Shown one piece after another: positions 807 to 21,593 of a DNA stretch of 64,000 bases (positions are counted from its first letter, which is position 1; the number at the start of each line of letters is the position of its first letter). The position numbers and the translations under genes are program-made. Under the pieces are notes generated by a model. It ran no database searches. It worked only from the letters and a program-made list of their open reading frames with translations, and was not told where the DNA came from. Origin of the DNA: Elusimicrobiota bacterium (lineage in GTDB: Bacteria > Elusimicrobiota > Elusimicrobia > UBA1565); the NCBI GenBank assembly GCA_043819795.1, contig JBDREN010000049.1, positions 2,379 through 66,378 on the forward strand, written 5' to 3'.

Positions 807-2240
807 ATGAGAGTCGCAGAGAAGACGAAGTCCGCGCAGGAGGTCTGGGCCAAAGGGTACGGCGTCATCAAGCACGCGCCCGAGACCCAGAGGCGCGTGC
901 GCGCCATGGCCAAGCACTTCAAGGCCACGGGAGACGGGACGCCTCTCTTCGAGATTCTGGCGGCGGCCGACCGGCTCGCGAGCGCGGCCATGTGGCTCAC
1001 GGTGCACGACACCTACGCCAGGAACGTGTACTTGGACGGGCGCAAGCTCGGCCGCGAGGACTTCAAGAAGAGCCCCGAGGGGCACACCGGAGGCTCCCTC
1101 AACATCTGCCCGGCCTACGCGGGCTATCTCGCCGCGAACGCGATCACCGGCCATACCCGGGGCTGGCTCATGGAGCAGGGGCACACGGTCTCGGCGATCG
1201 ACTCCGTGAACCTGCTCGTCGGCAACCTGACGCCGGCCCATGCGGAGCGTTACGACCTGACCAACGAGGGCCTGAGCCGTTTCGTGCGGGACTTCTACTC
1301 CTACCGGCTCAACGACAAGGGCGAGCAGGATTCCCCGCGGGGCAGCCACGTGAACGCCCACACGGCGGGGGGCATCGCCGAAGGCGGGTATCTCGGCTTC
1401 GCCGGCCTGCAGTACGCGCACCTGCCCCTGGCGGGCGAGAGGCTGGTGGCGTTCCTGAGCGACGGCGCCTTCGAGGAGCAGCGCGGCCCGGACTGGGCCC
1501 CGCGATGGTGGCGGCACGCGGACTGCGGCTTGGTCGCGCCCATCATGATCTGCAACGGCAGGCGCATCGACCAGCGCACCACCATGAGCATGTCCGGCGG
1601 CTCGGCCTGGTTCCGCAGGCATCTGGAGCTCAACAACTTCGATCCCATCGTGATCGACGGAAGGGACCCGGCGGCCTTCGCCTGGGCGATCTGGGAGACG
1701 GAGAGAAGGCTCGAGTCCGCTCCCCGGAAATATCCCGTGAGGCTTCCCTACGCGATCGCGGAGACCGTCAAGGGATACGGCTTCCCCGGGCAGGGGACGA
1801 ACGCGGCCCACGGCCTGCCTATAGGCGGCAAGGCGGACGACGAGATGATCCGCGTATTCAATGACGGCGCCGGGAAGCTGCACGTGCCCGCGCAAGAGCT
1901 CAAGGAGGCGGCGGCGAGGTTCCAGCGGCACAAGGACCGGCCCAAGGAGCGGGACCACGCCATGGCGGCGCGGGACGTGAAACTCAAGAGGACGGTCGAG
2001 CCCCCCTGGCTGCGAGTGGACGAGAAGCACATTCCCATGACGATGATCGACTACATGTTCGTCGAGACCTGCCTGGCGAACAAGCACCTCCGGCCCCGCG
2101 TGGGCAACCCGGACGAGCTCCGCTCCAACCGGATGGAGCGCACCTTGGATATCCTCAAGCACCGGGTGACGCTTCCGGAGCGGGGAATGGCGGAGGCGCT
2201 CGACGGGAAGCTGTCTCCGCACGAGGTGATCCTCCGATGA
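807..2240 (+). CDS. Phosphoketolase (XFP) family protein, N-terminal and central portion only (477 aa; possible truncated gene or pseudogene)
   Basis: Clear similarity to xylulose-5-P/fructose-6-P phosphoketolase TPP-binding regions (GHTGGSLNI.., HTAGGIAEGGYLGFAGLQYAHL, FLSDGAFEEQRGPDWAPRWW, APIMICNGRRIDQRTTMS, RVGNPDELRSNRMERT). The ORF is ~477 aa versus ~790-820 aa for characterised XFPs. It stops just after the central domain, 4 nt after the next gene's start. Confidence 0.7.
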   Translation: MRVAEKTKSAQEVWAKGYGVIKHAPETQRRVRAMAKHFKATGDGTPLFEILAAADRLASAAMWLTVHDTYARNVYLDGRKLGREDFKKSPEGHTGGSLNICPAYAGYLAANAITGHTRGWLMEQGHTVSAIDSVNLLVGNLTPAHAERYDLTNEGLSRFVRDFYSYRLNDKGEQDSPRGSHVNAHTAGGIAEGGYLGFAGLQYAHLPLAGERLVAFLSDGAFEEQRGPDWAPRWWRHADCGLVAPIMICNGRRIDQRTTMSMSGGSAWFRRHLELNNFDPIVIDGRDPAAFAWAIWETERRLESAPRKYPVRLPYAIAETVKGYGFPGQGTNAAHGLPIGGKADDEMIRVFNDGAGKLHVPAQELKEAAARFQRHKDRPKERDHAMAARDVKLKRTVEPPWLRVDEKHIPMTMIDYMFVETCLANKHLRPRVGNPDELRSNRMERTLDILKHRVTLPERGMAEALDGKLSPHEVILR

Positions 2241-2877: not shown

Positions 2878-3351
2878 CTAATCCTGGCCGTGGAGGGAAG
2901 ACGACTTGTCGTCGTGCACGCCGCGGCGTAGCGTCTGAAAGAGCCGCTCGAAGTGATGGACGCTGACAAGGACCGTGACCGAAACAAGCGCCATCGCCAG
3001 GGCCAGGCCGAATTCCCGGAACCCGATGGCGCAGCCGATGGCGGCCAGGAGCCACACCACCGCCGCCGAGGTGATCCCCGTGACGAGACCTTGCCTGTGC
3101 ATCATGAGTCCGGCGCCCAGGAACCCGACGCCGGTGGCCACCTGGCCCAGCACCCGTGTCGGGTCCCCCTGACCCATATGGCGCATGCCTATGTCAATGT
3201 AGGTGAGGGTGCCGAGGCAGATGAGGATGCTGGTCCGGATGCCGATCGGCTTGCCGCGCAGCTGCCTCTCGATGCCGATGATCACGCCGCAGGCTATGGC
3301 GGCCAGGATCTGAAGCCAGAAGATGCGATCCGCGAGAACATGTGCGCCCAT
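2878..3351 (-). CDS. mgtC: MgtC/SapB family membrane protein
   Basis: MgtC signature IIGIERQLRGKPIGIRT and 4-5 TM helices. I set the start to the internal ATG at 3351 (MGAHVLADRIFWLQ...); the longer track ORF running to 3573 adds an arginine-rich non-homologous leader. Confidence 0.75.
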   Translation of the reverse strand: MGAHVLADRIFWLQILAAIACGVIIGIERQLRGKPIGIRTSILICLGTLTYIDIGMRHMGQGDPTRVLGQVATGVGFLGAGLMMHRQGLVTGITSAAVVWLLAAIGCAIGFREFGLALAMALVSVTVLVSVHHFERLFQTLRRGVHDDKSSSLHGQD

Positions 3352-3555
3352 CCCGGGAGTATAACTTACCCATGAACGGCCTGCAAATCGCCGAATCGCC
3401 CCACGCTCCCTTCCTCTCCCCTCACGGAGAGAATTTCGTGCACATCCGCGGCGTTTCGCCGGGCGCGCGCATCTCAGTCCGGGCCAGCTCTCCATCCCGG
3501 CAGCGTAAAAACGGGACGCCGGTGGGGAGAATATGGTTAAATTGATGCCGCTCTC

Positions 3556-5052
3556 ATGCCCGCCGATCCTCAAACGTGGGAATCCCGGAGCCCGTTGCGG
3601 AACTTTCTATTGGAAAGCGTCACGGGGCAGGTCCTGATTTCCCTGACAAGCGGGACCTTCGTGACCGCCTTCGCCGTCAAGCTCGGAGCGTCCAACGCGC
3701 AGGTCGGGATCCTGGCATCCATCGCCGCCCTGTCCCAGCTCGTGCAAATCCCCTCGATCTATCTGATCAACCGCTTGCGGGATCGCAAGATCATCGCCAT
3801 GGCCGGCTTCCTTCTCTCCAAGCTTTCCTGGCTGTTGATCGTCCTGCCCATCTTGTGGGGGGCCCGGTCCGTCCCCATGGGGCGTCTGACCGTCGCCGTG
3901 GCCTTGAGCTCCACCTTCGCGGCGGCGGCGCTCTGCAGCTGGAATTCCTGGCTTCGCGACGTGATCGGGCGCAGCCGCATGGGCGCGTTCTTCGCCAAGC
4001 GGCTGGCCTACAGCAAGGCCGTGGGCATCATCACCGGCCTGTCGGCCGGATTCTTCGTGACGGCTTGGGGGAGCTACTCCCGGGAGACGGTGCTCGCCAG
4101 CTATGCCATCCTCTTCTTGGGCGGCATCCTGTTCGGACTGATGAGCGTGTATTTCGTCTGGACCTCCCCCGAGCCGCCTCAAATCCCGATCGACGTCGGA
4201 TTCCTTTCCTCGATCCTGGAGCCGTTCCGCGACAGGAATTACCGGATGCTCATCATCTTCCTCGCGATGTGGAGCTTTTCGGTCAACCTGGCCGCCCCGT
4301 TCTTCACTGTGTACATGCTCAGGCGGCTGCACTTCACCGTGGCCTTCGTGATGTCCATGTCCGTCTTGAGCAACGTCATGAACCTCATATTCTTCCGGTT
4401 CTGGGGCGCTTTCGCCGACCAGTTCTCCAACAAAGGCGTCCTCGCCGTTTGCGCGCCGCTTTGCATCGTCAGCACCTTGTCTTGGGCTTTCACGACCTTG
4501 CCCGAGCCGCACTTCCTGACCTTGCCGATGGTGATCGCGATACATATAGTGGTGGGCGCGGCCACCGCCGGTGTCATACTGGCGTCGAGCAATATCGGCA
4601 TGAAATTGTCCCCGAAGGGGAAGTCGGCGTCGTTTCTGGCCGCGAGCTCCATCGTAAGCTCCTTGGCGGCCGGCATCGCCCCGGTCATCGGAGGGATGTC
4701 GGCGGACTACTTCGCCAGCCGGGAGCTGTCCCTCCTGCTGACATGGAAGAGTCCGGCGTTGGACCTCGGCTTGCGGGCGATCAGCTTCAGGCACTGGGAC
4801 TTCTTCTTCGCCATCGCGTTCGCGCTCGGACTCTATGCATTGCGGCGCTTGTCCTTGGTCCGGGAGGAGGGGGAGGTGCAGCAGAGGGTCGCCCTCCGGG
4901 AATTCCTCCGGCGCCTGCGCGCGAGAATGCTGGCGTTGACCACGGTCCGCGGGATGCGGCAGTTCATCCTCATGCCCGTGGAATTCCTCCGGGACTTCAC
5001 CGAGGAGGACGATATCCTGCCGCACGCGGAGTCCCGGGAAATCCCACGATGA
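3556..5052 (+). CDS. MFS (major facilitator superfamily) transporter
   Basis: 498 aa with ~12 hydrophobic helices and an MFS-like loop between TM2 and TM3 (LINRLRDRKII). Substrate cannot be inferred. Confidence 0.7.
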   Translation: MPADPQTWESRSPLRNFLLESVTGQVLISLTSGTFVTAFAVKLGASNAQVGILASIAALSQLVQIPSIYLINRLRDRKIIAMAGFLLSKLSWLLIVLPILWGARSVPMGRLTVAVALSSTFAAAALCSWNSWLRDVIGRSRMGAFFAKRLAYSKAVGIITGLSAGFFVTAWGSYSRETVLASYAILFLGGILFGLMSVYFVWTSPEPPQIPIDVGFLSSILEPFRDRNYRMLIIFLAMWSFSVNLAAPFFTVYMLRRLHFTVAFVMSMSVLSNVMNLIFFRFWGAFADQFSNKGVLAVCAPLCIVSTLSWAFTTLPEPHFLTLPMVIAIHIVVGAATAGVILASSNIGMKLSPKGKSASFLAASSIVSSLAAGIAPVIGGMSADYFASRELSLLLTWKSPALDLGLRAISFRHWDFFFAIAFALGLYALRRLSLVREEGEVQQRVALREFLRRLRARMLALTTVRGMRQFILMPVEFLRDFTEEDDILPHAESREIPR

Positions 5053-5071: not shown

Positions 5072-7951
5072 ATGAAGCACACTGCTTGGCTGTCGATCGG
5101 CGCGATGATCCTGTTCGCGGGAGCCGGGTCCGCGGCCCCGTTTCGCCCCCTCGAGCCCAAGGAGGCCGCCGCGCTGATATCGAAGATCCAGGCCAATCCG
5201 CGCGGGCCGTACGAGCGCGTGATGTGGCACTGCCGGGACGGCTCGGTGCTGCCTCCCGCGCCCTATGCCTGCTCCGAGCGCGGCGGCGGCCGGCAATACG
5301 GCGTCCCGAACGCGGACGCGGGGAAGCTGGCTGCGGCCGGGATATACGTCGGCACGGTCTTGGCGTCATTGTCGCCCGAGGATCTGACCGCCGACGGCTA
5401 TTACCGCGCGCGGGCCATTATCGTGGAGAAATTCCTCGAGATCGCGCTGGACGGGTGGGCCTTGCGTTCGGCGAAGTCGTATCGGGGCTTCAGGCAGGCC
5501 GAAGACGAGGAGAAAGCGGCCGAAACCCTTCTGGCGGTATTGGCCCGCGAGGACGGCTGGGCCCTGCGCCATCGCTACCTCGCCGTCCGGCTCGCGCGGT
5601 CCATGCCGGGCGGAGCGGACGCGAGCCTGGCCGATGAGATCCGCGCCCTCGCCGCCAAGATAGCGGACAAGGACCCCGCGTTCCAGGGCATGCGCTCCAA
5701 GATCCACTCCATCATGGAGCCCGGAGACGCCAGCGCGGTGCTGAGCTATTCGGAAACGGCGCCGGCGGCCGCGCCGGCGGCGAGGGAGCTGGCGGAGAAA
5801 ATCCGGGCCTATTACGACCCGCGCCAGTTGCGCGACCGCCTCCGGAGGATCAGACGCTTCTTGCCGGACCGGGGGATCGCAGGCCTGATCGACGAGTTGG
5901 TTTCCGCGGAAGCCGATGTCTTCGAGCGGATACGGATCGTCGAGGAATTGCTGACCCTGGCGGACCGAGCGCTCGGCCAGGCCGCGTCCCGCACCGACGG
6001 GACCCGGCTCCACCTGATCCAACTCATGAGCGCCTTGGAGGATGTCCTGGCCTCGACGACCGCGCAGCTAAGAGGCGCGAGCATGTTCAGGCTTCAGGCG
6101 GTGGAGACCGCGCAGAGGCTGTCGCGGTGCGCCCGGGCGCTCGGGCTTCTCTCGCCGCGCGAGCTGGAGGCCGCCCGGCCGGTCATAGGGCGCATGCGGA
6201 CCGGAGGGGGAGCGGATTACGTCGCCGGGCATCGCCAGCTGATTCGGACCGCCGAATGGGCTCGTGCCCTGGTGCTGTCGGAGCTGGGCATCCCCATCGG
6301 CCGGTACGTCCTGGCCGAAGGCCGGGCGGCGCAGGTCGTGGACGAGCTGCTTCGCAGCGGGGTGATGCTGCCGCTGGCGGCGATCATCGACCGCATCGGC
6401 GCCGACCTGTACTCCCTGCGGGGAGGGAACCATCGCGTCTACGGCGTGAAGGGGGCCGCCGTGCGGGGCGAGAACCCGGGCCTGGCGATCGGGCCGCTTC
6501 GCGTCCGAGAGCATTCCCAATCGCCCAAAGGACTCAAGCGCAACGAGGTGGCGCTCCTATATGAGCTCCCTTCGGAGCTGCCTCCGGTCGCGGGGATCAT
6601 CACCGTGGGCGCGTCCGGCAGCCTATCGCATGTCGCCCTGCTGGTGCGGAATCTGGGGATTCCCTTGGTTTCCGTGGACGGGCGGACCGCCGACGCGATC
6701 AAGGCCTGGGAAGGGCGGGAGGTGGCCGTGGGCGTGAGCGCGGGCGGCCGCGTGGTCTTGGGAGAGCTTATCGCGTTCGGGGAGGAAGACCGGCGGCTGT
6801 TGGGGCGATCGTCGGCCAAGGACCAGCCTTTCCTGAGGATCCCGCGCGAGTCGCTCAACCTCCGCTTCGCGGAGGCCCTCGCGCTGGGCGAGGTGTCGGA
6901 AAAGGATTCCGGGGCGAGGGTCGGGCCCAAGGCCGCGGAGCTGGCCAGGCTCAAGCGTCTGTTCCCGGATCGCGTGAGCGACGCGGCGGTGCTGCCCTTC
7001 GGGCTGTTCGTCGAGCATGTCGACCGGCCGGGGCCGGACGGGGCTCCGTCCCCCCTGGCGAGGCTGCGGTGGGCCTATGCCCAGGCGGCCACAAAAGGCG
7101 CCGAGGAGCGGGAGCGGTTCATGCTGGAAGAGCTCGCCAGGTTCCGCAAGCGGATACTGGAGCTCCCCTTTGCGGATGGGTTCGAGCGGAAGATCGACGA
7201 GGCGCTCGCGCGCGTCGGCCGGCCGGGCGCATTCGGGGTCTTCGTCCGCAGCGACACCAACGTGGAGGACCTCAAGGAGTTCACCGGCGCCGGCCTGAAC
7301 CTGACGGTACCCAACGTCGTAGCGCGCGATTCGGTCTTCTCCGCGATCCGTTCGGTCTGGGCGTCCCCCTATTCCGAACGCTCCTACGCCTGGCGGCAGC
7401 GCATACTCCTCGATCCGGAGCATGTCTATCCGTCGGTCATTCTCCACAAGACCGTTCCCTCCGAAATATCGGGGGTCCTGGTCACGATGGACATGGAGAC
7501 GGGGGATCCGGGCCAGGTCACGGTGAGCGCGAGCGAGGGCGTGGCCGCGGTGGTGGACAGCGGCCTTCCGGAGACGATCGTCGTGCCCAGACAGGGAGGC
7601 GCCCCTCGGTGGCTCTCCTCGTCCCGGACCGCGACCAGGAAGGCGGTCCCCCCGTTGCCGAAAGAGGGGCTCGAGGTGCTCCCCGCCTCCGGCGGCGAGC
7701 CTCTGCTGGGACCGGCAAGGATCAAGGACATCCTCCATGTCGTTTCGCGTCTGGAGACGATCGAACGGGCCGACCCGGCCGTCCCCTGGGATGTGGAGTT
7801 CGGGTTCCTGGGGGATCGGATGTTCCTCATGCAGCTGCGGCCGCTCAAGGTGTCCCGCTCGGCCGTCCGCCAGCCCTATCTGCGGAAGCTCGATCGGGAG
7901 GTCTCGTCGAGGATCGGCGAGGTCGACATGAGCCGGCCGTTGGCAAGGTGA
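5072..7951 (+). CDS. PEP-utilizing-enzyme family protein with signal peptide and permuted domain order (N-terminal unknown domain, then phosphohistidine swivel domain, then PPDK_N ATP-binding domain)
   Basis: Signal-like N-terminus MKHTAWLSIGAMILFAGAGSAAP. The mid-region matches the PEP-utilizers mobile domain (AGIITVGASGSLSHVALLVRNLGIPLVSVDG). The C-terminal ~330 aa match the PPDK_N / PEP-synthase nucleotide-binding domain (VGPKAAELARLK.., VFVRSDTNVEDL..GAGLNLTVPN...AIRSVWASPYSERSYAWRQ...SGVLVTMDMETGD..VTVSASEGVAAVVDSG). Confidence 0.7.
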   Translation: MKHTAWLSIGAMILFAGAGSAAPFRPLEPKEAAALISKIQANPRGPYERVMWHCRDGSVLPPAPYACSERGGGRQYGVPNADAGKLAAAGIYVGTVLASLSPEDLTADGYYRARAIIVEKFLEIALDGWALRSAKSYRGFRQAEDEEKAAETLLAVLAREDGWALRHRYLAVRLARSMPGGADASLADEIRALAAKIADKDPAFQGMRSKIHSIMEPGDASAVLSYSETAPAAAPAARELAEKIRAYYDPRQLRDRLRRIRRFLPDRGIAGLIDELVSAEADVFERIRIVEELLTLADRALGQAASRTDGTRLHLIQLMSALEDVLASTTAQLRGASMFRLQAVETAQRLSRCARALGLLSPRELEAARPVIGRMRTGGGADYVAGHRQLIRTAEWARALVLSELGIPIGRYVLAEGRAAQVVDELLRSGVMLPLAAIIDRIGADLYSLRGGNHRVYGVKGAAVRGENPGLAIGPLRVREHSQSPKGLKRNEVALLYELPSELPPVAGIITVGASGSLSHVALLVRNLGIPLVSVDGRTADAIKAWEGREVAVGVSAGGRVVLGELIAFGEEDRRLLGRSSAKDQPFLRIPRESLNLRFAEALALGEVSEKDSGARVGPKAAELARLKRLFPDRVSDAAVLPFGLFVEHVDRPGPDGAPSPLARLRWAYAQAATKGAEERERFMLEELARFRKRILELPFADGFERKIDEALARVGRPGAFGVFVRSDTNVEDLKEFTGAGLNLTVPNVVARDSVFSAIRSVWASPYSERSYAWRQRILLDPEHVYPSVILHKTVPSEISGVLVTMDMETGDPGQVTVSASEGVAAVVDSGLPETIVVPRQGGAPRWLSSSRTATRKAVPPLPKEGLEVLPASGGEPLLGPARIKDILHVVSRLETIERADPAVPWDVEFGFLGDRMFLMQLRPLKVSRSAVRQPYLRKLDREVSSRIGEVDMSRPLAR

Positions 7952-7958
7952 ACGGGCG

Positions 7959-9269
7959 ATGAGAGCAAGGGCGCCGAGACTTTTGACGCGGCTGGGGCTG
8001 GCTCTGGGCATGGCCTGCCTACGGCAGGGCGCGGCGGCGTACCCGACGGATTCCGGGGAGCGGACCGGCATCCGCCGGTTGTCCTGGCAGGCGCAGGTCG
8101 ACCGGGGCGAGACGCGGGGAGTCAAGAACCCGCCTGGAGGGCGCTGGGGGGAGGATCGGATACGCCTGCGGCTGCTGAGCTCGGGCGCGCGATTCCGGCT
8201 GTCCGAGGACAGCCCCAAGGACCCGGTCCTTCAGAAGGGCCTGACGGACATACTCAAACGCGGGGGTTGGGAGTCGTACGGGGCGGCGATCGTGGACATC
8301 TCCGACCCGGAAGCCCCGAGATACGCGGCCGTCAACGAGCTCAAGCGCCAGATACCGGGCAGCACGGCCAAGGTGCTGGCGGCCGCGGGCATGCTGGAGG
8401 CGCTGCGGTCCCTTTATCCCGACGACATAGCCGCCCGGGAGAGGGCTTTGCGGACGATTCGGGTTCCGGCGGACTCCTGGGCCATGCCCAACTCTCATGA
8501 TGTCCCGATCCTGACGGCCGAGGGGATGTCGATGCGCCCCATCCGCCCCGGCGACGTCTTCTCACTGTGGGAGTGGCTGGACCACGCACTCTCCCCGAGC
8601 TCCAACGCCGCGGGGACCATGGTGTGGCGCGAGGCGGCGCTGCTGCGCTTGTTGGGGCGGGAATATCCCCCGGCGGCTTGGGACGGAAAGCTCTTCGCAC
8701 GGTGGAGCAGGCAGGATTTCACCAAGGCCGCGTTCGATGCGGTCGACGCTCCGCAGGCCGGGGCCGGGCTCGATACGGACCTGTTGCGGATACGTACATT
8801 CTTCACGGCGGGCGCTTCCCGCCACATCCTTTCGTCGAGCAGCGTCGGGACTCCCTTGGGCCTGGCGCAATGGCTGCTCAGCATGGAGCAGGGCAGGATC
8901 GTGGACCCTTGGTCCAGCCTCGAGCTCAAGCGCCTCCTCTACGTCACGCGCAGGCGCATCCGGTCCGCCGCGGCCCCGGAGCTGGCGGAATGCGCCGTAT
9001 ACTTCAAGAGCGGAAGTCTCTACAAGTGCAGACCCGAGGAGGGCTTCGTCTGCAAGAAGTATATGGGCAACGATCAGAACCTGCTCAACTCGCTGGCCTT
9101 GGTCGAAGTCCCGTCCGCGGAGCCCGATGAGGGCGGTCGACACCGCATTTCAGGGGCGTATATCGTGGCCGTGACGTCGAACGTGCTCAAGCGGAACTCG
9201 GCCGACGATCACGCGCGCCTCGCGGGCGCCATCCATCGCTTGCTGACGGGCCGGCAAAAAAAGAAATGA
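7959..9269 (+). CDS. Class A beta-lactamase-like serine hydrolase (Beta-lactamase2 family), secreted
   Basis: Signal peptide. S-x-x-K (PGSTAKVL), S-x-N (SPSSNAAG) and K-S-G (YFKSGSL) motifs are in class-A order and spacing. Confidence 0.65.
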   Translation: MRARAPRLLTRLGLALGMACLRQGAAAYPTDSGERTGIRRLSWQAQVDRGETRGVKNPPGGRWGEDRIRLRLLSSGARFRLSEDSPKDPVLQKGLTDILKRGGWESYGAAIVDISDPEAPRYAAVNELKRQIPGSTAKVLAAAGMLEALRSLYPDDIAARERALRTIRVPADSWAMPNSHDVPILTAEGMSMRPIRPGDVFSLWEWLDHALSPSSNAAGTMVWREAALLRLLGREYPPAAWDGKLFARWSRQDFTKAAFDAVDAPQAGAGLDTDLLRIRTFFTAGASRHILSSSSVGTPLGLAQWLLSMEQGRIVDPWSSLELKRLLYVTRRRIRSAAAPELAECAVYFKSGSLYKCRPEEGFVCKKYMGNDQNLLNSLALVEVPSAEPDEGGRHRISGAYIVAVTSNVLKRNSADDHARLAGAIHRLLTGRQKKK

Positions 9270-10267
9270 CCAAAAATGGCGCCGTGCTCGCCGTGTCCGC
9301 CTTTCTGCTGAGCGTCTTCCCGCATGCCTCGCCGGCGGGAGAGGAAGCCCCGCCGCCCGTCGAGCTGGACTCCAACGGCAATCCCATCGGAGAGGCGGCC
9401 CTCAACTGCAGGGCGAACTATCCTCTTTTGCGCAAGAACGCGGACCTCATGGCCGCGCTCGCGGCGGCGCTGGAGAAGGCCGGATACAGCGAGGCGATAC
9501 GGAAAAGGAAGATGGCGGTTTCCATCGTCGATCTGACGGCCAAGAACCGCGTCTATTACGCGGGCATCAACGGCAACCACATGATGTACGCCGCCAGCCT
9601 CCCGAAGATAGCCGCGCTTCTGGCGTACGTCGAGGCGGTCAAGGACGGCCGGCTGCCCTGGAATGACGATGTCCGGAGGCGGCTCTCGCGCATGATCAAC
9701 GCATCGAGCAACAAGGACGCCACGTGGGCCATCGAGCAGGTGGGCCTCGATTACATCGAAAAGGTCCTGCGCAAGCAGGGCCGGTGTTTCTACGGCGACC
9801 GGTATGGAGGGCAATGGCTGGGCAAGCCGTACCGGAAGGAAAGCAAGGCGAAGAGGGACCCTTTGCGGGGATTGTCTCACGGCGCCACGACCCGCCAGAC
9901 CGCGAGATGGTTCGTTCTGCTGGACAAGGGTTTGCTCGCGGATCCGGTGGGGAGCAGGCGGATGATGGGGGTGATGAGTCCCCCGCAAAAGCGCCACAAA
10001 TTCGTCAAAGGGCTGAAGCCTCTCGGGGACGTCCGTATTCTGGCCAGAAAAAGCGGGACTTGGCGGACCTACCACTCCGACAGCATCCTGGTGGAGCATG
10101 AGAGCGGCGTCCGCTATGTGGCCGTCGGGATGCTGGACCACCCAAGGGGCGGGAGAATCCTCGTCGATCTGATAAGGATCGTCGACCGGCTGATGGTGGG
10201 AGGGAAACACCGCGTTCCTCGGGCGGAGCCCGGCGGGGGCGCCGGATCGCCCGAGATCCCGCGGTGA
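9266..10267 (+). CDS. Class A beta-lactamase-like serine hydrolase (paralog of the preceding gene), secreted
   Basis: Signal peptide. SLPK (S-x-x-K), ASSNKD (S-x-N), an RKE omega-loop-like triad and ARKSGTW (K-S-G). The start overlaps the upstream stop (ATGA). Confidence 0.65.
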   Translation: MTKNGAVLAVSAFLLSVFPHASPAGEEAPPPVELDSNGNPIGEAALNCRANYPLLRKNADLMAALAAALEKAGYSEAIRKRKMAVSIVDLTAKNRVYYAGINGNHMMYAASLPKIAALLAYVEAVKDGRLPWNDDVRRRLSRMINASSNKDATWAIEQVGLDYIEKVLRKQGRCFYGDRYGGQWLGKPYRKESKAKRDPLRGLSHGATTRQTARWFVLLDKGLLADPVGSRRMMGVMSPPQKRHKFVKGLKPLGDVRILARKSGTWRTYHSDSILVEHESGVRYVAVGMLDHPRGGRILVDLIRIVDRLMVGGKHRVPRAEPGGGAGSPEIPR

Positions 10268-10334
10268 GGGTCCGTCCCCGTCCGGACCGGTAGCTTTTCA
10301 GCTCGACCGGCGACGATCCTTCATCGGAGCTCGG

Positions 10335-10622
10335 TCAGTCGGTCCATTCCCGCGACCGAAGGGCCCGGACCTCGTCCTCGAGCTCGGACACCCGGTCTCT
10401 GAGGGTCAGCATCAAGTGGGCTATCCCGACGTCGACGCCGAGGGCGCGGCAGACGCGCTCTATGCGCCGCAGGCGCGGGAGGGCCCGCCGGTCCAGCTCG
10501 ACCCCCTCATCGGTCTCGCGGACCTCGATGACGGACTCTTCGATGGACCGCTGCAGGAAATCCGGCTCGATGAGCAGCGTCTCCGAAAGTCTGAGGATCT
10601 GCGACCGCCTAACCCGCCGCAT
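10335..10622 (-). CDS. cbpM: Chaperone modulator CbpM-like (MerR-like small protein)
   Basis: 95 aa, similar to E. coli CbpM. It sits immediately downstream of, and overlaps, a DnaJ-family gene, which is the classic cbpA-cbpM arrangement. Confidence 0.6.
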   Translation of the reverse strand: MRRVRRSQILRLSETLLIEPDFLQRSIEESVIEVRETDEGVELDRRALPRLRRIERVCRALGVDVGIAHLMLTLRDRVSELEDEVRALRSREWTD

Positions 10623-11595
10623 TCTGGTGCTCCTTCTTCAGCTCCCCCATCAGAGCCTCCGCCTTGTGCGACAGCTCGGACGGGATGTCGACCTCGATGC
10701 GGGCGTAGAGGTCACCGCGGCCCCGCCGCCCGCCGCCGAGTCCCTTGCCCGGGATGCGAAGCCGCGTACCGGCTCTGGTCCCTTTGGGAACGCGGATGCG
10801 CACCCGGCCGAGAGGAGTGGGGACCAGGACCTCCGCTCCGAGCGCGGCGTCCCACGGCATCACCCGGACGGCGGTCTCGATGTCGGAGCCGCTCACCTTG
10901 AACCTCGGATCGGGCTTGAGCCGGACGGTCAAATAAAGATCGCCCGGAGGCTGGCCGTCCCCCGACTTGTTGCCCTGGCCTTTGAGCCTGATCCTGCTGC
11001 CGTCGCGCAGGTCGGAAGGAAGGCGCGAGCGTATCTCCCGAGCGCTTCGCGTCTCTCCCGCGCCCCCGCAGGCCGGGCAGAACGCCTTCCCGGCGTGCCC
11101 CGCGCCCAGGCATTTCGGGCACACTCCCGTGACGGACATTGAAAAAGAGCGCTCTCCTCCCCGGACAGCCTCTTCCAGGGAAAGCTCGATGACCGCCTCG
11201 ATGTCCAGCGAGGCGGGCGGCGCGCTCCATCGCCCCCCAGCGTGGCCGCCGCCGAAGAAGCTTCGGAAGAAGTCGCTGAATATCTCGTCTCCCGAAGCGC
11301 CCGTCTCGAACCTGAAGGAGTCCCGGGCTCTCTCCTGGGCCGGCGGCGGGCGGAAGGCCTGCCCGTCCTTCCAGTGCTCGCCGAGCTGATCGTACTTCGC
11401 CCGGTTCTCGGCGCTGCCCAGGACCTCGTACGCCTCGTTGATCACCTGGAACGCCTTGGTGTGCTCGGCCTTGTCCTTGTCGGGATGAAGGTCGGGATGA
11501 TGCTCCCGGGCAAGACGCCGGTAAGCCTGCTTGATCTCGTCGGAGCTCGCGCCGCGCGGCACGCCCAGGATCTTGTAGTAGTCCTTGTATTTCAC
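10609..11595 (-). CDS. DnaJ-class co-chaperone, CbpA-like (J domain, partial Cys-rich region, DnaJ C-terminal domain)
   Basis: J-domain DYYKILGV...HPD. Only two CxxCxGxG repeats (CPKCLGAGH, CPACGGAGE). I set the start to GTG at 11593-11595 (VKYKDYYKILGV) with an AGG upstream; the track ORF extends to 11799 through a non-homologous leader. Confidence 0.75.
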   Translation of the reverse strand: MKYKDYYKILGVPRGASSDEIKQAYRRLAREHHPDLHPDKDKAEHTKAFQVINEAYEVLGSAENRAKYDQLGEHWKDGQAFRPPPAQERARDSFRFETGASGDEIFSDFFRSFFGGGHAGGRWSAPPASLDIEAVIELSLEEAVRGGERSFSMSVTGVCPKCLGAGHAGKAFCPACGGAGETRSAREIRSRLPSDLRDGSRIRLKGQGNKSGDGQPPGDLYLTVRLKPDPRFKVSGSDIETAVRVMPWDAALGAEVLVPTPLGRVRIRVPKGTRAGTRLRIPGKGLGGGRRGRGDLYARIEVDIPSELSHKAEALMGELKKEHQNAAG

Positions 11596-11743
11596 CAGTA
11601 CCTGCGATGGTATCAAAACCTGCACGACTCCGCCACCAGAAGGACATGCTCCTGGGCGCGGCTCTCCAAGCGAAATGCTAGAGTATCCGCGTCCCCGCGG
11701 ATACCCGCGTCGGATCGGATCGAAAAGTCTTAAGGAGGCGGCG

Positions 11744-12586
11744 ATGGAAATAACCTTCTGGGGATGTCGCGGATCGATCGCGTCTCCGGGGCAGGACACT
11801 CTTCGCTATGGGGGCAACAGCACCTGCCTGGAGATCCGTCCCCGCGAGGGCGGGGTCATCATCCTGGATGCGGGTTCCGGGATGCGTCATCTCGGCAAGA
11901 AGTTGGCGAAGGACGCGGGGATCAACGAGCTCTATCTGTTGCTGACGCACTCGCATTGGGACCATCTGTCGGGCTTCCCGTTCTTCGCGCCCGCCTACAT
12001 GGAGCGGTTCAAGATCAACGTCTATGGGGGGCCCAAGGCTCGGGAATCCCTTAAGCGCTATCTATCGCACCAGATGAGCGCGCCGTACTTCCCCATCGAA
12101 TTCCGCCACTTGAAGGCGACGTTCAACTTCGGCGACGAGTGCCCCCGCATGGAGGAAATAGGCCTCGTGGAGTTCAGCGCGATCCCTCTCAACCATCCCA
12201 ACGGCGGTTATGGATTCAAGCTTTCGAAGCTCGGCAAGAGCCTCGTCTTTCTCACGGACAACGAGCTCGATGGCCGGCATCCCGGCGGGCTCGGATGGAA
12301 GGACTACCTGGACTTCTGCCGCGGGACCGATTTGCTGATCCACGACGCCCAATACACGGACCAGGAGTACGAGAAGACCAGGGGGTGGGGCCACTCCTCA
12401 TATTCCAGCGCCACGCGCTTCGCCATCGAGTCCGGGGCGAGGAGATTCTGCATTTTCCATCACGATCCCGACAGGACCGACGACGACCTTGACCGCCAGG
12501 TGGAATACTGCGCTCGCCTAATACGGGAGGCAGGCGCATCCGTAGAGTGTTTCGCCGCCAGGGAGGGGATGTCGATCCGTCTCTAG
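11744..12586 (+). CDS. MBL-fold metallo-hydrolase
   Basis: THSHWDH (HxHxDH) motif. Start set at ATG 11744 (MEITFWGCRGS), which is preceded by TAAGGAGG; the track ORF from 11585 lacks an RBS. Confidence 0.75.
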   Translation: MEITFWGCRGSIASPGQDTLRYGGNSTCLEIRPREGGVIILDAGSGMRHLGKKLAKDAGINELYLLLTHSHWDHLSGFPFFAPAYMERFKINVYGGPKARESLKRYLSHQMSAPYFPIEFRHLKATFNFGDECPRMEEIGLVEFSAIPLNHPNGGYGFKLSKLGKSLVFLTDNELDGRHPGGLGWKDYLDFCRGTDLLIHDAQYTDQEYEKTRGWGHSSYSSATRFAIESGARRFCIFHHDPDRTDDDLDRQVEYCARLIREAGASVECFAAREGMSIRL

Positions 12587-12709
12587 GACGGATCTTCCGC
12601 CTCGGCGTCGCCGCGCTCGGGCTCCGCCCGGCGGTCGGCTCGCGCCCTTCGTGGCCGAGAGCGGGCGGAAAGGCTTCCCATGCGGCGACGGCCCGGCCAG
12701 GAAGCCCGC

Positions 12710-13045
12710 CTACCTGGACCCGGGCCTCTCCGTCACTTCCCGGTCTTCGGGAAAATTCGAGTTGAAGGAATACGACTTGACCGTCCCATCCGCGCTGAAT
12801 CGGACGTAGAGATCCCGGGTGTCGCGGGCTCCGAGCAGCCGCAGTCTATAGTGGACCCAAGTCGCCGTGGCGTCCCCGTCATCGAGGCCTCTGCGGTATG
12901 GTCCGCCGAGCTCGCGCAGGAGATCCTGCTCCGTGGTCTTCCCCGTCCGGATCTCCGGGACGCGGGAAACATCGAAGGGCCGCCCGATGGTCACGCATCC
13001 GACGGACATGAATGGAATCGCCAGCAATATCAAGAGCGCGCGCAT
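12710..13045 (-). CDS. Small outer-membrane lipoprotein, SmpA/OmlA (BamE-like)
   Basis: Lipobox ...MSVGC, ~110 aa, and the BamE-like pattern (TGKTTEQDLLRELGGP...W.Y...). Start set at the internal ATG 13045. Confidence 0.5.
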   Translation of the reverse strand: MRALLILLAIPFMSVGCVTIGRPFDVSRVPEIRTGKTTEQDLLRELGGPYRRGLDDGDATATWVHYRLRLLGARDTRDLYVRFSADGTVKSYSFNSNFPEDREVTERPGSR

Positions 13046-13441
13046 ACCGCCTCCCGGTCGGCTTCCCGCCGTTGTGCAGAGCCTCCCGCAGCTATCCCCG
13101 TCTGCGCCAAGATGGTACACTTTTGCGCAAGGCTCTTCCAGCTCACCGACGACGGCGCCATCGACGGCGGGAAGAGCGACGGCGTTCTCGCGGCGGAGAT
13201 CCCGATAGCGCCGGGGAGCCGGCGACGCGGGGCAAGCCTTGCGGCGCCGGGTTGACCCGCCGCAGGGGCGCGCGGCCGGCCGGAGAGACTCCATTAAAAG
13301 AAGCGGCCGGAACCGGCGGATTGTGCGCTATGCTGCGGCCCGCGGCGCCCCCCGGCCTATCGACGCGCGGGAGCGGCGCGGGCTAATAGGAGACGTGACT
13401 CCCGTGGATAGGCGACGCGGCGCCCTTCCGCCCAAAGGCGA

Positions 13442-16280: not shown

Positions 16281-17759
16281 TCAGAGATAGGGGGAGAGCA
16301 GCCGGACGGCGGCGTCCCTGAGCCTCGCGGCGCGATTGCGCAGCATAAGATCCGCGAGTTTGAGCTCCCTCGCGGAGCGGCGTTTGCGGGCCGCGATCCG
16401 CTCCAGCGCGGCGGCCAGGCCCGGGCTGTAGCATTCCAGGTTGAATTCGAAGTTCAGAGCCAGGCTCCTGGGGTCCCAGTTCCCCGATCCGAGAAGGGCC
16501 CAGGACGAATCAACGAGCATCAGCTTGCTGTGGTCGAACGGAGGCGGCGAAAGCCATATCCTGCACCCGCGGGCGAGCAGCTCCGGCAGCAGGGGGTAGG
16601 AGGCCCACTGGACCAGCCGCAGGTTGGAGCGCTCCGGCAGGAGGATGTCCACGCGTACGCCGGCCATGGCCGCCACGCACAGCGCCGTGACCAGCGCCTC
16701 GTCCGGGAGGAAATAGGGCGTCACGACGATCACCGAGCGCCCGGCGCACTCGATCGCGCCCAAGAGCGTCCAGCGCAGCTTGTCGAAATCCTCGTCGGGG
16801 CCGTCGGCGATGCCGCGGGCGAGGACTCCCCCGGCCTCGGCGAGCGGCGGGAACCAGGCCTCTTCCGAAAGACGCTCGCCCGTGCAGAAGAACCAGTCCT
16901 CCGCGAAGACCTCCTGCAGGTCGGCCACCACCGGCCCCTCGACCCGGAAGTGCAGGTCTCGGATCCGCGGGGGCTCCGCGTCCCGCCCTTGGTAGGACTG
17001 GCCGATGTTCAGGCCGCCCGTGAAGCCGGTCCGTCCGTCGGCGACCAGGATCTTCCTGTGGCTGCGCAGGTTCACGTAGGGCATGCCCCACGGGATCATC
17101 GTGGGCATGAAATGCGCGACCCGCACGCCGGCGCGGCGGAGCGAGGACGTGATGGGAGGGACCGAGTAGCGCGCGCCCACGTCGTCTATCAGGACGCGGA
17201 CCTGGACCCCGCGCCGCACGGCGCGGCCGAGGGCCTCCCGGAACGTCGCCCCGACCGCGTCGTTGGAGAAGATATAGGAAGCCAGCGATACGGACCGTTC
17301 GGCCTCGTCGACGGCGCGCAACATCGCCGGGTAGGCCTGCGAGCCGTCTTGAAGCGGGAGTATCCGGTTTCCCGCGAGCAGCGGCCTTCGCGTCACATTG
17401 TCCATCACCCTCGCCAACGGAAGAAGGTGGCGCCGATCGGGCCCCAGGACGGCTCGCAGCGCTTCCGTCCCGGCGGCCTCGCGGCGGCGCGCGAACCGGA
17501 GCTTGCTCGCCCCCTTGCGCAGGCGCACGGCCTTCCTGCGGATCCGGTTGATGCCGAGCAGCATATAGACGCCGGCTCCGATCACCGGGGCGAGCCAGAT
17601 GAGGCCGATCCATCCCGTCGCCGCCCTGGAGTCCCGTTTGTTGACGAGGACGTGGACGGACGCCGCCACGGTGATCGCGAGGGTGAGGGCCCCGGCGATG
17701 TGGGGCTGAAACTGCCGGATCGTCTCGAGAATCGTCGCCGCGATGAGACCTGAGTTCAT
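16281..17759 (-). CDS. cls: Cardiolipin synthase (phospholipase D superfamily, two HKD motifs)
   Basis: Two N-terminal TM helices. HKD motifs HRKILVADG and HSKLMLVDSSWALLGSGN. Confidence 0.85.
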   Translation of the reverse strand: MNSGLIAATILETIRQFQPHIAGALTLAITVAASVHVLVNKRDSRAATGWIGLIWLAPVIGAGVYMLLGINRIRRKAVRLRKGASKLRFARRREAAGTEALRAVLGPDRRHLLPLARVMDNVTRRPLLAGNRILPLQDGSQAYPAMLRAVDEAERSVSLASYIFSNDAVGATFREALGRAVRRGVQVRVLIDDVGARYSVPPITSSLRRAGVRVAHFMPTMIPWGMPYVNLRSHRKILVADGRTGFTGGLNIGQSYQGRDAEPPRIRDLHFRVEGPVVADLQEVFAEDWFFCTGERLSEEAWFPPLAEAGGVLARGIADGPDEDFDKLRWTLLGAIECAGRSVIVVTPYFLPDEALVTALCVAAMAGVRVDILLPERSNLRLVQWASYPLLPELLARGCRIWLSPPPFDHSKLMLVDSSWALLGSGNWDPRSLALNFEFNLECYSPGLAAALERIAARKRRSARELKLADLMLRNRAARLRDAAVRLLSPYL

Positions 17760-21487: not shown

Positions 21488-21593
21488 CTTCGAGGAGATC
21501 CCGGGGCAGGGAAGACGCCGCCGCCCGTCGGCGGGGTCACTGCGCGCGGCGGGCATGGCTCCTTTTGGGCCTCCGGATCACGCCGCCGGCGGC

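Follow-up and report, generated by a model that had tools for sequence, protein, structure and literature searches.

A conserved cell-envelope gene module of double-membraned bacteria with a predicted exported histidine-swivel dikinase and two PBP-A-like serine enzymes

Three adjacent genes of an Elusimicrobiota bacterium, named here A, B and C, very probably form the core of a real, conserved and exported cell-envelope module that is widespread among double-membraned bacteria. Our best reading, to which we give a probability of about 0.5, is that A is a periplasmic dikinase phosphorylating an envelope substrate, that B and C handle the same substrate and that an NTT-like transporter delivers the ATP. 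An exported dikinase together with a relative of nucleotide transporters implies ATP-driven chemistry in a compartment held to be ATP-free. The first-pass annotation of this DNA had taken the combination for an undescribed one; in the literature that could be searched, no description of the module or of the combination was found.

The locus was analysed in a 64-kb stretch of DNA, called the window hereafter. The ORF check of the window found the three ORFs exactly where the first-pass annotation had placed them, and A, B and C are real ORFs in one tight operon, with the following features.

3556..5052, + strand: MFS transporter, same strand as A and 19 nt upstream (MFS_1 only; module membership doubtful)
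5072..7951, + strand: gene A, predicted exported His-swivel dikinase, 959 aa (ORF; at least 474 genomic relatives; AlphaFold pLDDT 83.8, pTM 0.81)
5072..5137, + strand: signal peptide of A, Sec-type, aa 1 to about 22, MKHTAWLSIGAMILFAGAGSAA (heuristic call; low pLDDT in the model)
5138..6460, + strand: novel N-terminal domain of A, presumed acceptor-binding, aa 23-463 (no Pfam or PDB match)
6461..6790, + strand: phosphohistidine swivel domain of A, aa 464-573, H520 codon at 6629-6631 (Pfam and family profile against the PDB)
6869..7906, + strand: C-terminal ATP-grasp nucleotide-binding domain of A, aa about 600-945 (PPDK_N)
7959..9269, + strand: gene B, predicted exported, enlarged acyl-serine enzyme of class-A/PBP-A fold, 436 aa (model, Foldseek, motifs, synteny)
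9266..10267, + strand: gene C, predicted exported PBP-A-like serine enzyme, 333 aa (Beta-lactamase2, PBP-A relative, motifs, synteny)
10269..10288, + strand: terminator-like hairpin with a T-rich tail (consensus match only)

A and B are separated by 7 nt, and B and C overlap by ATGA, as already noticed in the first pass. The hairpin at 10269-10288 sits 3' of C and is the probable end of the operon. The MFS gene upstream of A is generic and doubtfully belongs to the module; its family spans methanogens, Planctomycetota and WOR-3, and it adjoins A only in Elusimicrobiota. As a candidate TLC-like transporter it was rejected, with no match in hmmsearch and a hhalign probability of 0.7%. Envelope-biogenesis genes (AsmA-like, TamB and cardiolipin-synthase-like) are also present near the trio in the window.

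A is encoded in at least 474 genomes of about 10 diderm phyla, all carriers of the module being diderm taxa. In 64 of 70 loci the gene directly 3' of A is B, its start overlapping the stop of A by 4 nt in 35/68, and C is present in 60 of 80 related loci. The 35 loci with full flanks include at least 27 with C, 25 with an NTT-like gene and 22 with all four genes. In the clade closest to the window (identity 47-50%), A-B-C is accompanied by a convergent NTT-HEAT-cNBD gene. Chance is excluded because all three genes are conserved in synteny across phyla. The possibility, raised in the first pass, that B and C belong to a housekeeping clade conserved beside unrelated genes did not hold, the two genes travelling with A across phyla. 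Signal-peptide-like N-termini, judged by a heuristic (a hydrophobic segment, K/R upstream of it and small residues at -3/-1), were found in 78/79 homologues of A, 72/73 of B and 58/58 of C, and in the window proteins too.

Pfam places a PPDK_N domain (PF01326) in A at aa 685-934, i.e. at the C-terminus, with an E value of 6e-25, and a weak PEP-utilizers swivel match at aa 503-534. The swivel domain is supported by the family profile against the PDB (E 8e-5), in which the predicted catalytic His, H520, aligns with the catalytic His of PpsA. These matches, together with the signals in 78/79 homologues, bear out the first-pass view that A combines ATP-grasp and phosphohistidine domains with a secretion signal. 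The domains follow the order N-domain, His, ATP-grasp, which is permuted with respect to PpsA and RPH, and the PEP/pyruvate TIM barrel (PF02896, PEP-utilizers_C) was not found in A with Pfam. With the NCBIfam equivalog models A reaches 70-84 bits, where the cut-offs are 883-999; the best PEP synthase score is 84 bits for NF004881 (cut-off 883), and the rph model NF041857 gives 71.5 (cut-off 999). Of the label 'PEP-synthase/rifampin-phosphotransferase-like', the ATP-grasp and His domains can be kept; the permuted order, the unrelated acceptor domain and the scores speak against the rest.

Across 80 homologues with identities of 28-80%, H520, K620, R726, E732, D733, D907, E909, Q921 and R923 are invariant (80/80). 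A carries, as judged from its sequence, the residue set of the His-swivel dikinase superfamily, namely a phospho-acceptor His and ATP/Mg ligands, and is probably an active member of it. The N-domain, of about 440 aa in total, is laid out as a small alpha/beta subdomain with C54/C67 followed by an all-helical body. It is found only within the A architecture (451 clusters at 50% identity). No Pfam match was obtained for aa 24-476 even at E 10, and comparison with the PDB by sequence and fold gave nothing beyond generic helical bundles. C54, W129, Q142, R191, R208, K210, H212 and W396 are nevertheless invariant in 80/80 homologues, and R138 (79/80) and C67 (76/80) nearly so.

The motifs of B are S135xxK138, S214xN216 and K350-S-G352, with a Cys pair C357/C365, and those of C are S111xxK114, S147xN149 and K262-S-G264; in each family, conservation of SxxK, SxN and KSG is 90% or higher. 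B has no match in Pfam. Its model (pLDDT 92.3) matched class A beta-lactamases and PBP-A in Foldseek with E ~1e-9 and TM 0.72, the matches including LRA-5, CTX-M and PBP-A (the latter at E 3e-8, TM 0.74), as well as the PBP-A L158E mutant entry 2j9o. C matches Beta-lactamase2 in Pfam (E 3e-13), and its best solved relative in HMMER is PBP-A 2j7v, at a marginal E of 6e-3. Both proteins show the class A motifs and fold, the latter from Foldseek for B and from Pfam for C. In the HMMER alignment, L200 of C aligns with L158 of PBP-A, a position that we take to be the equivalent of Glu166 in class A enzymes; the equivalence is reportedly due to Urbach et al. 2008. No conserved Glu was found in the omega loop of the C family, and by this alignment C lacks the Glu166 general base of class A beta-lactamases.

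B is enlarged: it exceeds PBP-A by 170 aa and carries the Cys pair and, at its N-terminus, a conserved extension (YPxDxxERTGIRRL). The first-pass annotation had called B and C paralogous. Their similarity is remote (BLASTP E 0.03, hhalign E 7e-4), and they are not close paralogues but separate families, each conserved on its own, that share one fold. Its description of both as exported 'class-A beta-lactamase-like hydrolases' is right for the fold, the motifs and the signal-like N-termini; B and C appear closer to PBP-A-type DD-peptidases, and C has Leu at the Glu166 position.

The periplasm is, in the textbook view, a compartment without ATP. In our preferred reading, the Sec pathway would export A, whose C-terminal ATP-grasp domain would bind ATP in the periplasm; H520 of the swivel domain would accept the beta-phosphate of ATP, yielding AMP and Pi in the manner of PpsA, RPH and GWD, and the swivel domain would swing to the novel Arg/Lys/His-lined N-domain and phosphorylate an oxygen on a bound envelope substrate. 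B, translationally coupled to A, and C, which is likewise exported and has the fold of B, would as PBP-A-like acyl-serine enzymes bind or process the substrate of A. A dedicated, distant NTT/TLC-type transporter, present in most lineages, would be the simplest route of ATP to the periplasmic dikinase. What the data show directly are the genes and their synteny, the domains with their catalytic residues and the signal-like N-termini; the periplasmic location, the dikinase chemistry, the ATP export and the nature of the acceptor are what we infer from them. The most plausible substrate would be D-Ala-terminated or cross-linked peptidoglycan peptides or muropeptides; a peptidoglycan-related acceptor is a tentative proposal and, taken by itself, a rather unlikely one. 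The basis of this link is PBP-A, the nearest characterised relative of C, though a weakly similar one (E 6e-3); it is a periplasmic DD-carboxy/endopeptidase acting on muropeptides (PMC11189452).

The acceptor could be another envelope component, for example LPS/lipid A, periplasmic glucans, capsule, or a protein of the periplasm or outer membrane, with B and C as accessory proteins that bind or process it and have no relation to peptidoglycan. The GWD-like domain order suggests a polymer acceptor, the invariant Arg/Lys/His cluster of the N-domain fits an anionic substrate, and the AsmA-like, TamB and cardiolipin-synthase-like genes of the window lie close by. This alternative is unlikely, considering that no carbohydrate-binding module or any recognisable domain was found in the N-domain, that periplasmic glucans are not universal across the module-bearing phyla and that both partners show the PBP fold and keep their acyl-serine motifs intact, known proteins of this kind acting on D-Ala-containing peptides or beta-lactams.

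The first-pass annotation had proposed antibiotic or xenobiotic inactivation, which in the periplasm would mean that A phosphorylates a drug as RPH does rifampin and that B and C hydrolyse beta-lactams or related compounds. This idea found no positive support and is improbable. The acceptor domain of A is unlike the RIF-binding domain, full-length RPH can be aligned over only 325 residues, the score with the rph model is far below its cut-off, rifamycins act in the cytoplasm, and C shares its Leu at the Glu166 position with the non-lactamase PBP-A. Additionally, no full-length homologue was found on 72,556 plasmids and no PADLOC or resistance model matched; synteny across about 10 phyla, in an ancient chromosomal module with a dedicated transporter, looks like physiology and not like a mobile resistance trait.

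C and a distant relative of NTT/TLC ATP/ADP transporters accompany A-B in most loci, and the reciprocal search agrees. The NTT-like neighbours match Pfam TLC with E values of 9e-18 and 4e-12; their TIGR00769 scores of 23-60 bits against a cut-off of 387 place them very distant from characterised ATP/ADP exchangers. The long form is an NTT-HEAT-cNBD fusion, a type reported from free-living bacteria by Major et al. 2017, to whom its function was unknown (PMC5381601). Starting from the NTT-like gene, C adjoins it almost everywhere and A-B-C is found in 15 of 23 well-flanked loci; some C-NTT pairs have no A-B within 10 kb, and it may therefore be C, not A, that the transporter serves. An NTT-like gene was not found in the 64-kb window with an HMM of the module NTT-like genes and tblastn, and it is absent also from 8 fully flanked loci, which counts against the proposed ATP supply in the window locus. 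This fourth partner, invisible from the window and seen in most other lineages, shifts the question to how ATP would reach the periplasm. Two further points count against the proposal: periplasmic ATP could leak out through porins, and AMP, the nucleotide that dikinases release, is not exchanged by classical NTTs. Taken together, the chance that the NTT-like protein supplies A with ATP falls a little short of even.

The transport could also run in reverse, the NTT-like protein importing a nucleotide or phosphorylated product and A acting on nucleotides or regenerating ATP from AMP and a phosphodonor outside the cytoplasm. In favour of this reading, characterised NTTs are all importers or exchangers (PMC5381601), dikinases such as PPDK catalyse reversible reactions, and the NTT-like gene pairs more tightly with C than with A. 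Such a salvage is very improbable in view of the two PBP-fold partners with no obvious role in it, the lack in A of a PEP/pyruvate or other known phosphodonor domain, and the result that the module contains no conserved nucleotidase or phosphatase.

The N-terminal hydrophobic segment of A, by strong sequence inference, looks like a cleavable Sec signal and not like the cytoplasm-retaining anchor considered in the first pass, and A is predicted to be periplasmic. The hydrophobic core measures 11-16 aa in A, and its length is 13-14 aa across the A, B and C homologues; the Cys pairs C54/C67 of A and C357/C365 of B are consistent with periplasmic disulfides. It is very improbable that the stretch is instead a membrane anchor or a mis-called start, in which case A would use the ordinary ATP of the cytoplasm at the inner face of the membrane and the periplasm would contain only B and C. 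In favour of this alternative, ATP-grasp enzymes are otherwise cytoplasmic, the export call is heuristic, and in about 10/79 homologues a permissive count finds an apolar stretch of 19 residues or more. Against it, the median core of 13 aa is too short to span a membrane, K/R upstream in 73/79 homologues points to N-in and hence C-out, AXA-like sites occur in all and textbook signal peptides in many (e.g. MKKQLLLLLSYFVLINPAFA|D), the conserved mature domain always begins directly after the segment, the Cys pair is conserved, translation of A is coupled to that of an exported partner, and a cytoplasmic enzyme would not need a dedicated relative of nucleotide transporters.

Compared with known systems, A differs from RPH, PpsA and PPDK by its permuted order, the absence of the PEP/pyruvate TIM barrel and of the RIF-binding domain, equivalog scores about 10-fold under the cut-offs and its predicted export, these enzymes being cytoplasmic; PPDK_N is present as in PEP synthase, not in the N-terminal position. 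The dikinase relatives of the phenylphosphate synthase/HpeHI and PigC/RedH types are cytoplasmic, act on small aromatic or pyrrole substrates and differ from A in acceptor domains and partners. The PBP-A (Tll2115) family, which provides the best solved sequence relative of C and a structural match of B, has SxxK, SxN and K(S/T)G in common with both, at a very remote distance (E 6e-3, 13-18% identity). Among Gram-negative bacteria, a precedent for an enzyme that depends on ATP and bears a signal peptide is Lig E (PMC10799422; bioRxiv 10.64898/2026.03.22.713542). Its fold and chemistry are unrelated to those of A, and we know of no dedicated nucleotide transporter for it. The module transporter of other lineages matches Pfam TLC and TIGR00769, its long form having the NTT-HEAT-cNBD architecture already reported (PMC5381601); the direction proposed for the module is export, while the characterised NTTs bring ATP into plastids and intracellular parasites. 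The catalytic core of potato GWD1 consists of a central (acceptor) domain, a His domain and a C-terminal, RPH-like ATP-binding domain (PMC13553574). A resembles GWD1/PWD of plants and algae in this linear order, with an acceptor domain of about 440 aa first and an RPH-like ATP domain last; the likeness is one of domain order, the N-domain of A having shown no detectable similarity in sequence or fold to the solved domains of the PDB. Unlike GWD, A is bacterial, has neither CBM45 nor CBM20, bears a signal peptide and is accompanied by PBP-fold and NTT-like partners. Its presumed chemistry would be that of GWD, ATP + acceptor + H2O -> AMP + Pi + acceptor-phosphate, via a pivoting phospho-His.

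Three open reading frames on one strand, A, B and C, which had been reported in the first-pass annotation, lie exactly where it had placed them, in a window with a G+C content of 65-70%. A and B are 7 nt apart and an ATGA is common to the end of B and the start of C. The genes and features referred to here are the following.

807-2240, plus strand: ORF of 477 aa, with weak XFP_N (E = 1e-10) and XFP (E = 4e-4) matches only
2881-3573, minus strand: MgtC-family gene
3556-5052, plus strand: MFS transporter, 498 aa, ending 19 nt 5' of A (NCBI start 18 codons further downstream, 480 aa)
5072-7951, plus strand: A, putative exported His-swivel dikinase, 959 aa
7959-9269, plus strand: B, putative acyl-serine enzyme of the class A beta-lactamase/PBP-A fold, 436 aa
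9266-10267, plus strand: C, a second putative acyl-serine enzyme of this fold, 333 aa
10269-10288: hairpin with a T-rich tail, 3' of C
10335-10622, minus strand: MerR_2 (CbpM-like) gene
10609-11799, minus strand: DnaJ/DnaJ_C (CbpA-like) gene, the two overlapping each other and converging on the end of C
13442-15985, plus strand: AsmA-like gene
16284-17759, minus strand: PLD/cardiolipin-synthase-like gene
19823-21556, minus strand: YcbB/LdtD-type L,D-transpeptidase (Scaffold, PG_binding_1 and YkuD domains)
25111-27492, plus strand: large gene
30942-32255, plus strand: MgtE magnesium transporter
32272-36213, minus strand: TamB
41706-45680, plus strand: large gene
52600-54561, plus strand: large gene

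The clustering of envelope-biogenesis genes (AsmA-like, PLD/cardiolipin-synthase-like, L,D-transpeptidase and TamB) near the module may be a coincidence or a faint tie to cell-wall remodelling. The ORF at 807-2240 is far shorter than a phosphoketolase, and either is a truncated or divergent relative or has an inflated start; the long N-terminal extension of the MgtC ORF, as listed, is probably spurious. Of the other large genes, that at 25111-27492 codes for a protein of 793 aa whose C-terminal part is a creatininase domain and whose 540-aa N-terminus is without assignment, that at 41706-45680 for a 1324-aa hybrid kinase (GAF-PAS-HisKA-HATPase-2xREC-Hpt), and that at 52600-54561 for an NrfD-type membrane protein joined to multihaem cytochrome c3/c7 domains.

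The domain content of A was established by Pfam, which places PPDK_N at residues 685-934 (E = 6e-25) and a PEP-utilizers match, below threshold, at residues 503-534. A profile of 19 family members compared with the PDB matched PEP synthase with the ATP-grasp (E = 1e-29) and, separately, with the His domain (E = 8e-5), the segment GSLSH(520)VALLxRNLGIP of A aligning on GGRTSHAAIVSRELGIP of PEP synthase. The AlphaFold model (pLDDT 83.8, pTM 0.81) presents a low-confidence signal segment (residues 1-22), a small alpha/beta subdomain (29-100), an all-helical body (102-450), a beta-rich swivel domain (464-565) and an ATP-grasp (600-945), a layout supported by Foldseek. Taken together, Pfam, profile and model give the order acceptor-like N-domain, His domain, ATP-grasp, and no PEP/pyruvate TIM barrel is present in A. 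The NCBIfam equivalogs PpsA, RPH, PigC and RedH score A at 50-84 bits against cut-offs of 598-1350 which, together with the architecture, rules out that A is one of these enzymes. The initial description of A as PEP-synthase/RPH-like is then correct for its ATP-grasp and His domains, which match PEP synthase, and fails for the permuted domain order and the equivalog scores.

Conservation was computed over 80 genomic homologues of A with 28-80% identity. H520, K620, R726, E732, D733, D907, E909, Q921 and R923 are present in 80/80, as are C54, W129, Q142, R191, R208, K210, H212 and W396 of the N-domain, while R138 is found in 79/80 and C67 in 76/80. A carries all the catalytic features of a His-swivel dikinase, and it is conserved in the way expected of an active enzyme whose acceptor site is defined and basic. 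The N-domain, presumed to bind the acceptor, gave no Pfam hit with the threshold relaxed to E = 10 and nothing convincing in the PDB by sequence or fold comparison. Searched against 1.84 billion representative proteins, it turned up in 451 clusters. In the best 150 matches listed, it always lies at residues ~25-500 of full-length proteins of ~950-1000 aa, the shorter entries look like fragments, and other architectures, which were sought, do not occur.

The presence of export signals was examined, heuristically, by inspecting in every homologue the stretch N-terminal to the first conserved mature residues. A strongly hydrophobic segment is found in 78/79 members of the A family, 72/73 of the B family and 58/58 of the C family, with K or R at most 10 aa upstream in 73/79, 72/73 and 51/58, respectively. 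The apolar core has a median length of 13-14 aa (interquartile range 11-16) and ends with small -3/-1 residues in essentially all homologues. A, B and C thus have signal-peptide-like N-termini, many of which are textbook Sec signals, as in A of Agaribacterium (MKKQLLLLLSYFVLINPAFA, followed by DSQ), A of Halioglobus (MKLKRLLLLALPFCLALALPVQA, followed by DTA) and B of a Terriglobia MAG (MKALLVLLLCLLLAAPAGLLA). Retention of A by a cytoplasm-facing anchor is unlikely, since hydrophobic cores of this length do not suffice to anchor a protein in the membrane and, even were the segment an anchor, the protein body would come to lie outside according to the positive-inside rule. The near-invariant Cys pairs of A and B fit an oxidising compartment, and every taxon carrying the module is diderm. 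From these sequence features we infer a periplasmic location for A.

C matches Beta-lactamase2 in Pfam (E = 3e-13), and its best solved relative is PBP-A/Tll2115 (E = 6e-3). D198-P-L200 of C aligns on N-P-L158 of PBP-A, L158 reportedly occupying the position of class A Glu166 (Urbach et al.); the entry of the PBP-A L158E mutant, 2j9o, is among the Foldseek matches. No conserved Glu was found across the C family in the loop aligned with the L158 region. B has no sequence match in Pfam, NCBIfam or the PDB, and its model (pLDDT 92.3) matches class A beta-lactamases and PBP-A (Foldseek E ~1e-9 to 1e-8, TM 0.71-0.74) at 13-18% identity. The SxxK, SxN and KSG motifs are kept by at least 90% of the members of both families. 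In the B family, with no fewer than 1,735 B-like proteins, C357 and C365 are kept as well. B and C, first described as paralogous, are only remotely similar (BLASTP E = 0.03, hhalign E = 7e-4), which rules out recent paralogues; they are two families of one fold, each conserved in its own right. PBP-A itself works in the periplasm as a DD-carboxy/endopeptidase with specificity for amidated muropeptides (PMC11189452).

A scan of one genome per GTDB species revealed at least 474 loci encoding full-length relatives of A, in about ten phyla, of which 80 were kept (L001-L080). These belong to Elusimicrobiota, Bdellovibrionales, Myxococcota, Desulfobacterota, Acidobacteriota, Gemmatimonadota, Nitrospirota, Spirochaetales, Gamma-, Beta- and Zeta-proteobacteria (with the cultured Parahaliea maris, P. 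aestuarii and Agaribacterium haliotis) and Bacteroidota (the cultured Polaribacter aestuariivivens and an uncultured Dokdonia genome). By tblastn, 75/80 loci contain B and 60/80 contain C. In 64 of the 70 loci with enough downstream sequence, the gene immediately 3' of A, and on its strand, is B. The start of B overlaps the stop of A by 4 nt in 35/68, and C usually comes after B, on the opposite strand in 44 loci versus the same strand in 15.

Unbiased clustering of all ORFs flanking the A loci yielded one further recurrent neighbour, in two forms: a membrane protein of ~430-470 aa and a protein of ~1000 aa that also has HEAT repeats and a cNMP-binding domain, i.e. an NTT-HEAT-cNBD fusion. Both match the Pfam ATP/ADP transporter family TLC (E = 9e-18 and 4e-12). 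An HMM of the module NTTs detected this NTT-like gene in 52/80 A loci, for the most part no more than 2.6 kb from A. Where the flanks reach 6 kb or more on each side (35 loci), C is present in at least 27, the NTT-like gene in 25 and the complete set of four genes in 22. A, B and C are co-inherited across phyla with this nucleotide-transporter relative. In a reciprocal scan of metagenome contigs with the NTT-like alignment (80 kept of 589 relatives), C is immediately upstream of, and divergent from, the NTT-like gene in nearly every locus with sequence there, and of 23 loci flanked by 5 kb or more at each end, 15 have the full A-B-C(-)-NTT(+) arrangement. At least six reciprocal loci have the divergent C-NTT pair and neither A nor B at a distance of 10 kb or less (L123, L131, L133, L135, L148 and L156, at ~9000-11250 in each). 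From this synteny, the module is built from A-B and C-NTT, each a very tight pair and the two usually found together, and C-NTT is suggested to be a functional unit of its own, able to work apart or distant from the dikinase. In L005, L015, L039, L042, L073 and L078 two different NTT-like genes occur, a short form of ~430-470 aa and a long one of ~720-1170 aa with HEAT repeats and sometimes a cNMP-binding domain, which hints at two transport activities or at a regulated carrier beside an unregulated one. NTTs and NTT-HEAT(-cNBD) fusions of free-living bacteria were described by Major et al. 2017, who stated their functions to be unknown and mention neither export nor the periplasm (PMC5381601).

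In the clade nearest the window (47-56% identity; L002, L040 and L161), A-B-C is followed by a convergent NTT-HEAT-cNBD gene, a slot that the opposite-strand cbpM/cbpA-like pair fills in the window. The module-NTT HMM found no NTT-like gene anywhere in the 64 kb, and L001, a relative with 80% identity, likewise has none up to 10 kb from A. The MFS gene is not its stand-in, as this HMM does not match it and the hhalign probability of 0.7% is below that of a generic MFS control (18%). The MFS family is broad (methanogens, ANME archaea, Planctomycetota, WOR-3 and Zixibacteria) and, among the A loci, adjoins A-B-C only in Elusimicrobiota; it is probably an operon passenger or a lineage-specific recruit. 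The fully flanked acidobacterial loci L006, L008 and L012 (Terriglobia/Bryobacterales, ~9950-14200) contain A-B only, with neither C nor an NTT-like gene within 10 kb, and L008 and L012 have an ordinary MFS_1 gene ~5 kb downstream. The NTT-like transporter may be encoded elsewhere in the window organism, and evidently is for eight other fully flanked loci.

We infer a mechanism in which H520 of A would take the beta-phosphate of ATP and hand it to an acceptor bound to the N-domain, this same molecule would be worked on by C and by B, whose translation is coupled to that of A, and the NTT-like protein would swap cytoplasmic ATP for periplasmic AMP or ADP. Many diderms would deliberately supply the periplasm with ATP: a dedicated exporter of the NTT/TLC type would fuel a His-swivel dikinase which, with two PBP-like enzymes, would phosphorylate or activate a substrate of the envelope, for instance peptidoglycan peptides, a reading to which we give a probability of about 0.35. 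As the acceptor itself, peptidoglycan peptides or muropeptides are a doubtful candidate, favoured because B and C share the PBP fold, keep their acyl-serine motifs intact and, at least in C, lack a Glu166 equivalent, and because peptidoglycan is, to our knowledge, the one periplasmic polymer common to all carrier phyla. The acceptor may instead be LPS, glucans or proteins, and the NTT-like transporter may act in salvage or import. Antibiotic inactivation by A-B-C, the function first proposed, is weakened by the unrelated acceptor domain of A, the PBP-like character of C, the ancient, syntenic and chromosomal nature of the module and the lack of any full-length homologue on 72,556 plasmids. On this last result a mobile resistance element was likewise rejected, and anti-phage defence was discarded as PADLOC gave no match.

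The periplasm is held to contain no ATP, a premise of envelope biology and the accepted reason for TonB, Tol-Pal, Lpt, Lol, Bam and the "stored energy" of D-Ala-D-Ala transpeptidation. A putatively exported A, with invariant ATP-binding and phosphohistidine residues in hundreds of genomes and usually beside an ATP/ADP-translocase relative, challenges this premise. If the proposed ATP supply is true, the module would be a new ATP-driven extracytoplasmic cell-wall chemistry, contradicting the textbook "ATP-free periplasm", and if the acceptor is peptidoglycan, a new route of cell-wall modification that might serve as a drug target. The module would also give the NTT and NTT-HEAT-cNBD proteins of free-living bacteria a first function that is concrete and testable, and identifies two large uncharacterised PBP-fold families, B and C, as putative phosphotransferase partners. 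Tests are feasible because Parahaliea maris, P. aestuarii, Agaribacterium haliotis and Polaribacter aestuariivivens are cultivable carriers.

The components of the module belong to known superfamilies; within the His-swivel dikinases, the A family is new in its acceptor domain and its export, and the B family is without family assignment. At the system level, a dedicated ATP supply for periplasmic phosphorylation would be categorically new, if confirmed. The combination had been thought not to be a described system, and indeed neither the four-gene module nor any periplasmic dikinase was found when 8 million full-text papers were searched for periplasmic ATP, NTT export and exported PEP/pyruvate-binding proteins. 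Compared with known systems, the domain order of PpsA and RPH is permuted relative to A, whereas the catalytic core of potato GWD1 has the same order, with a central domain at 483-926, His at 931-1050 and ATP at 1069-1387 (PMC13553574), and Lig E offers a precedent for an ATP-dependent enzyme targeted to the periplasm (PMC10799422).
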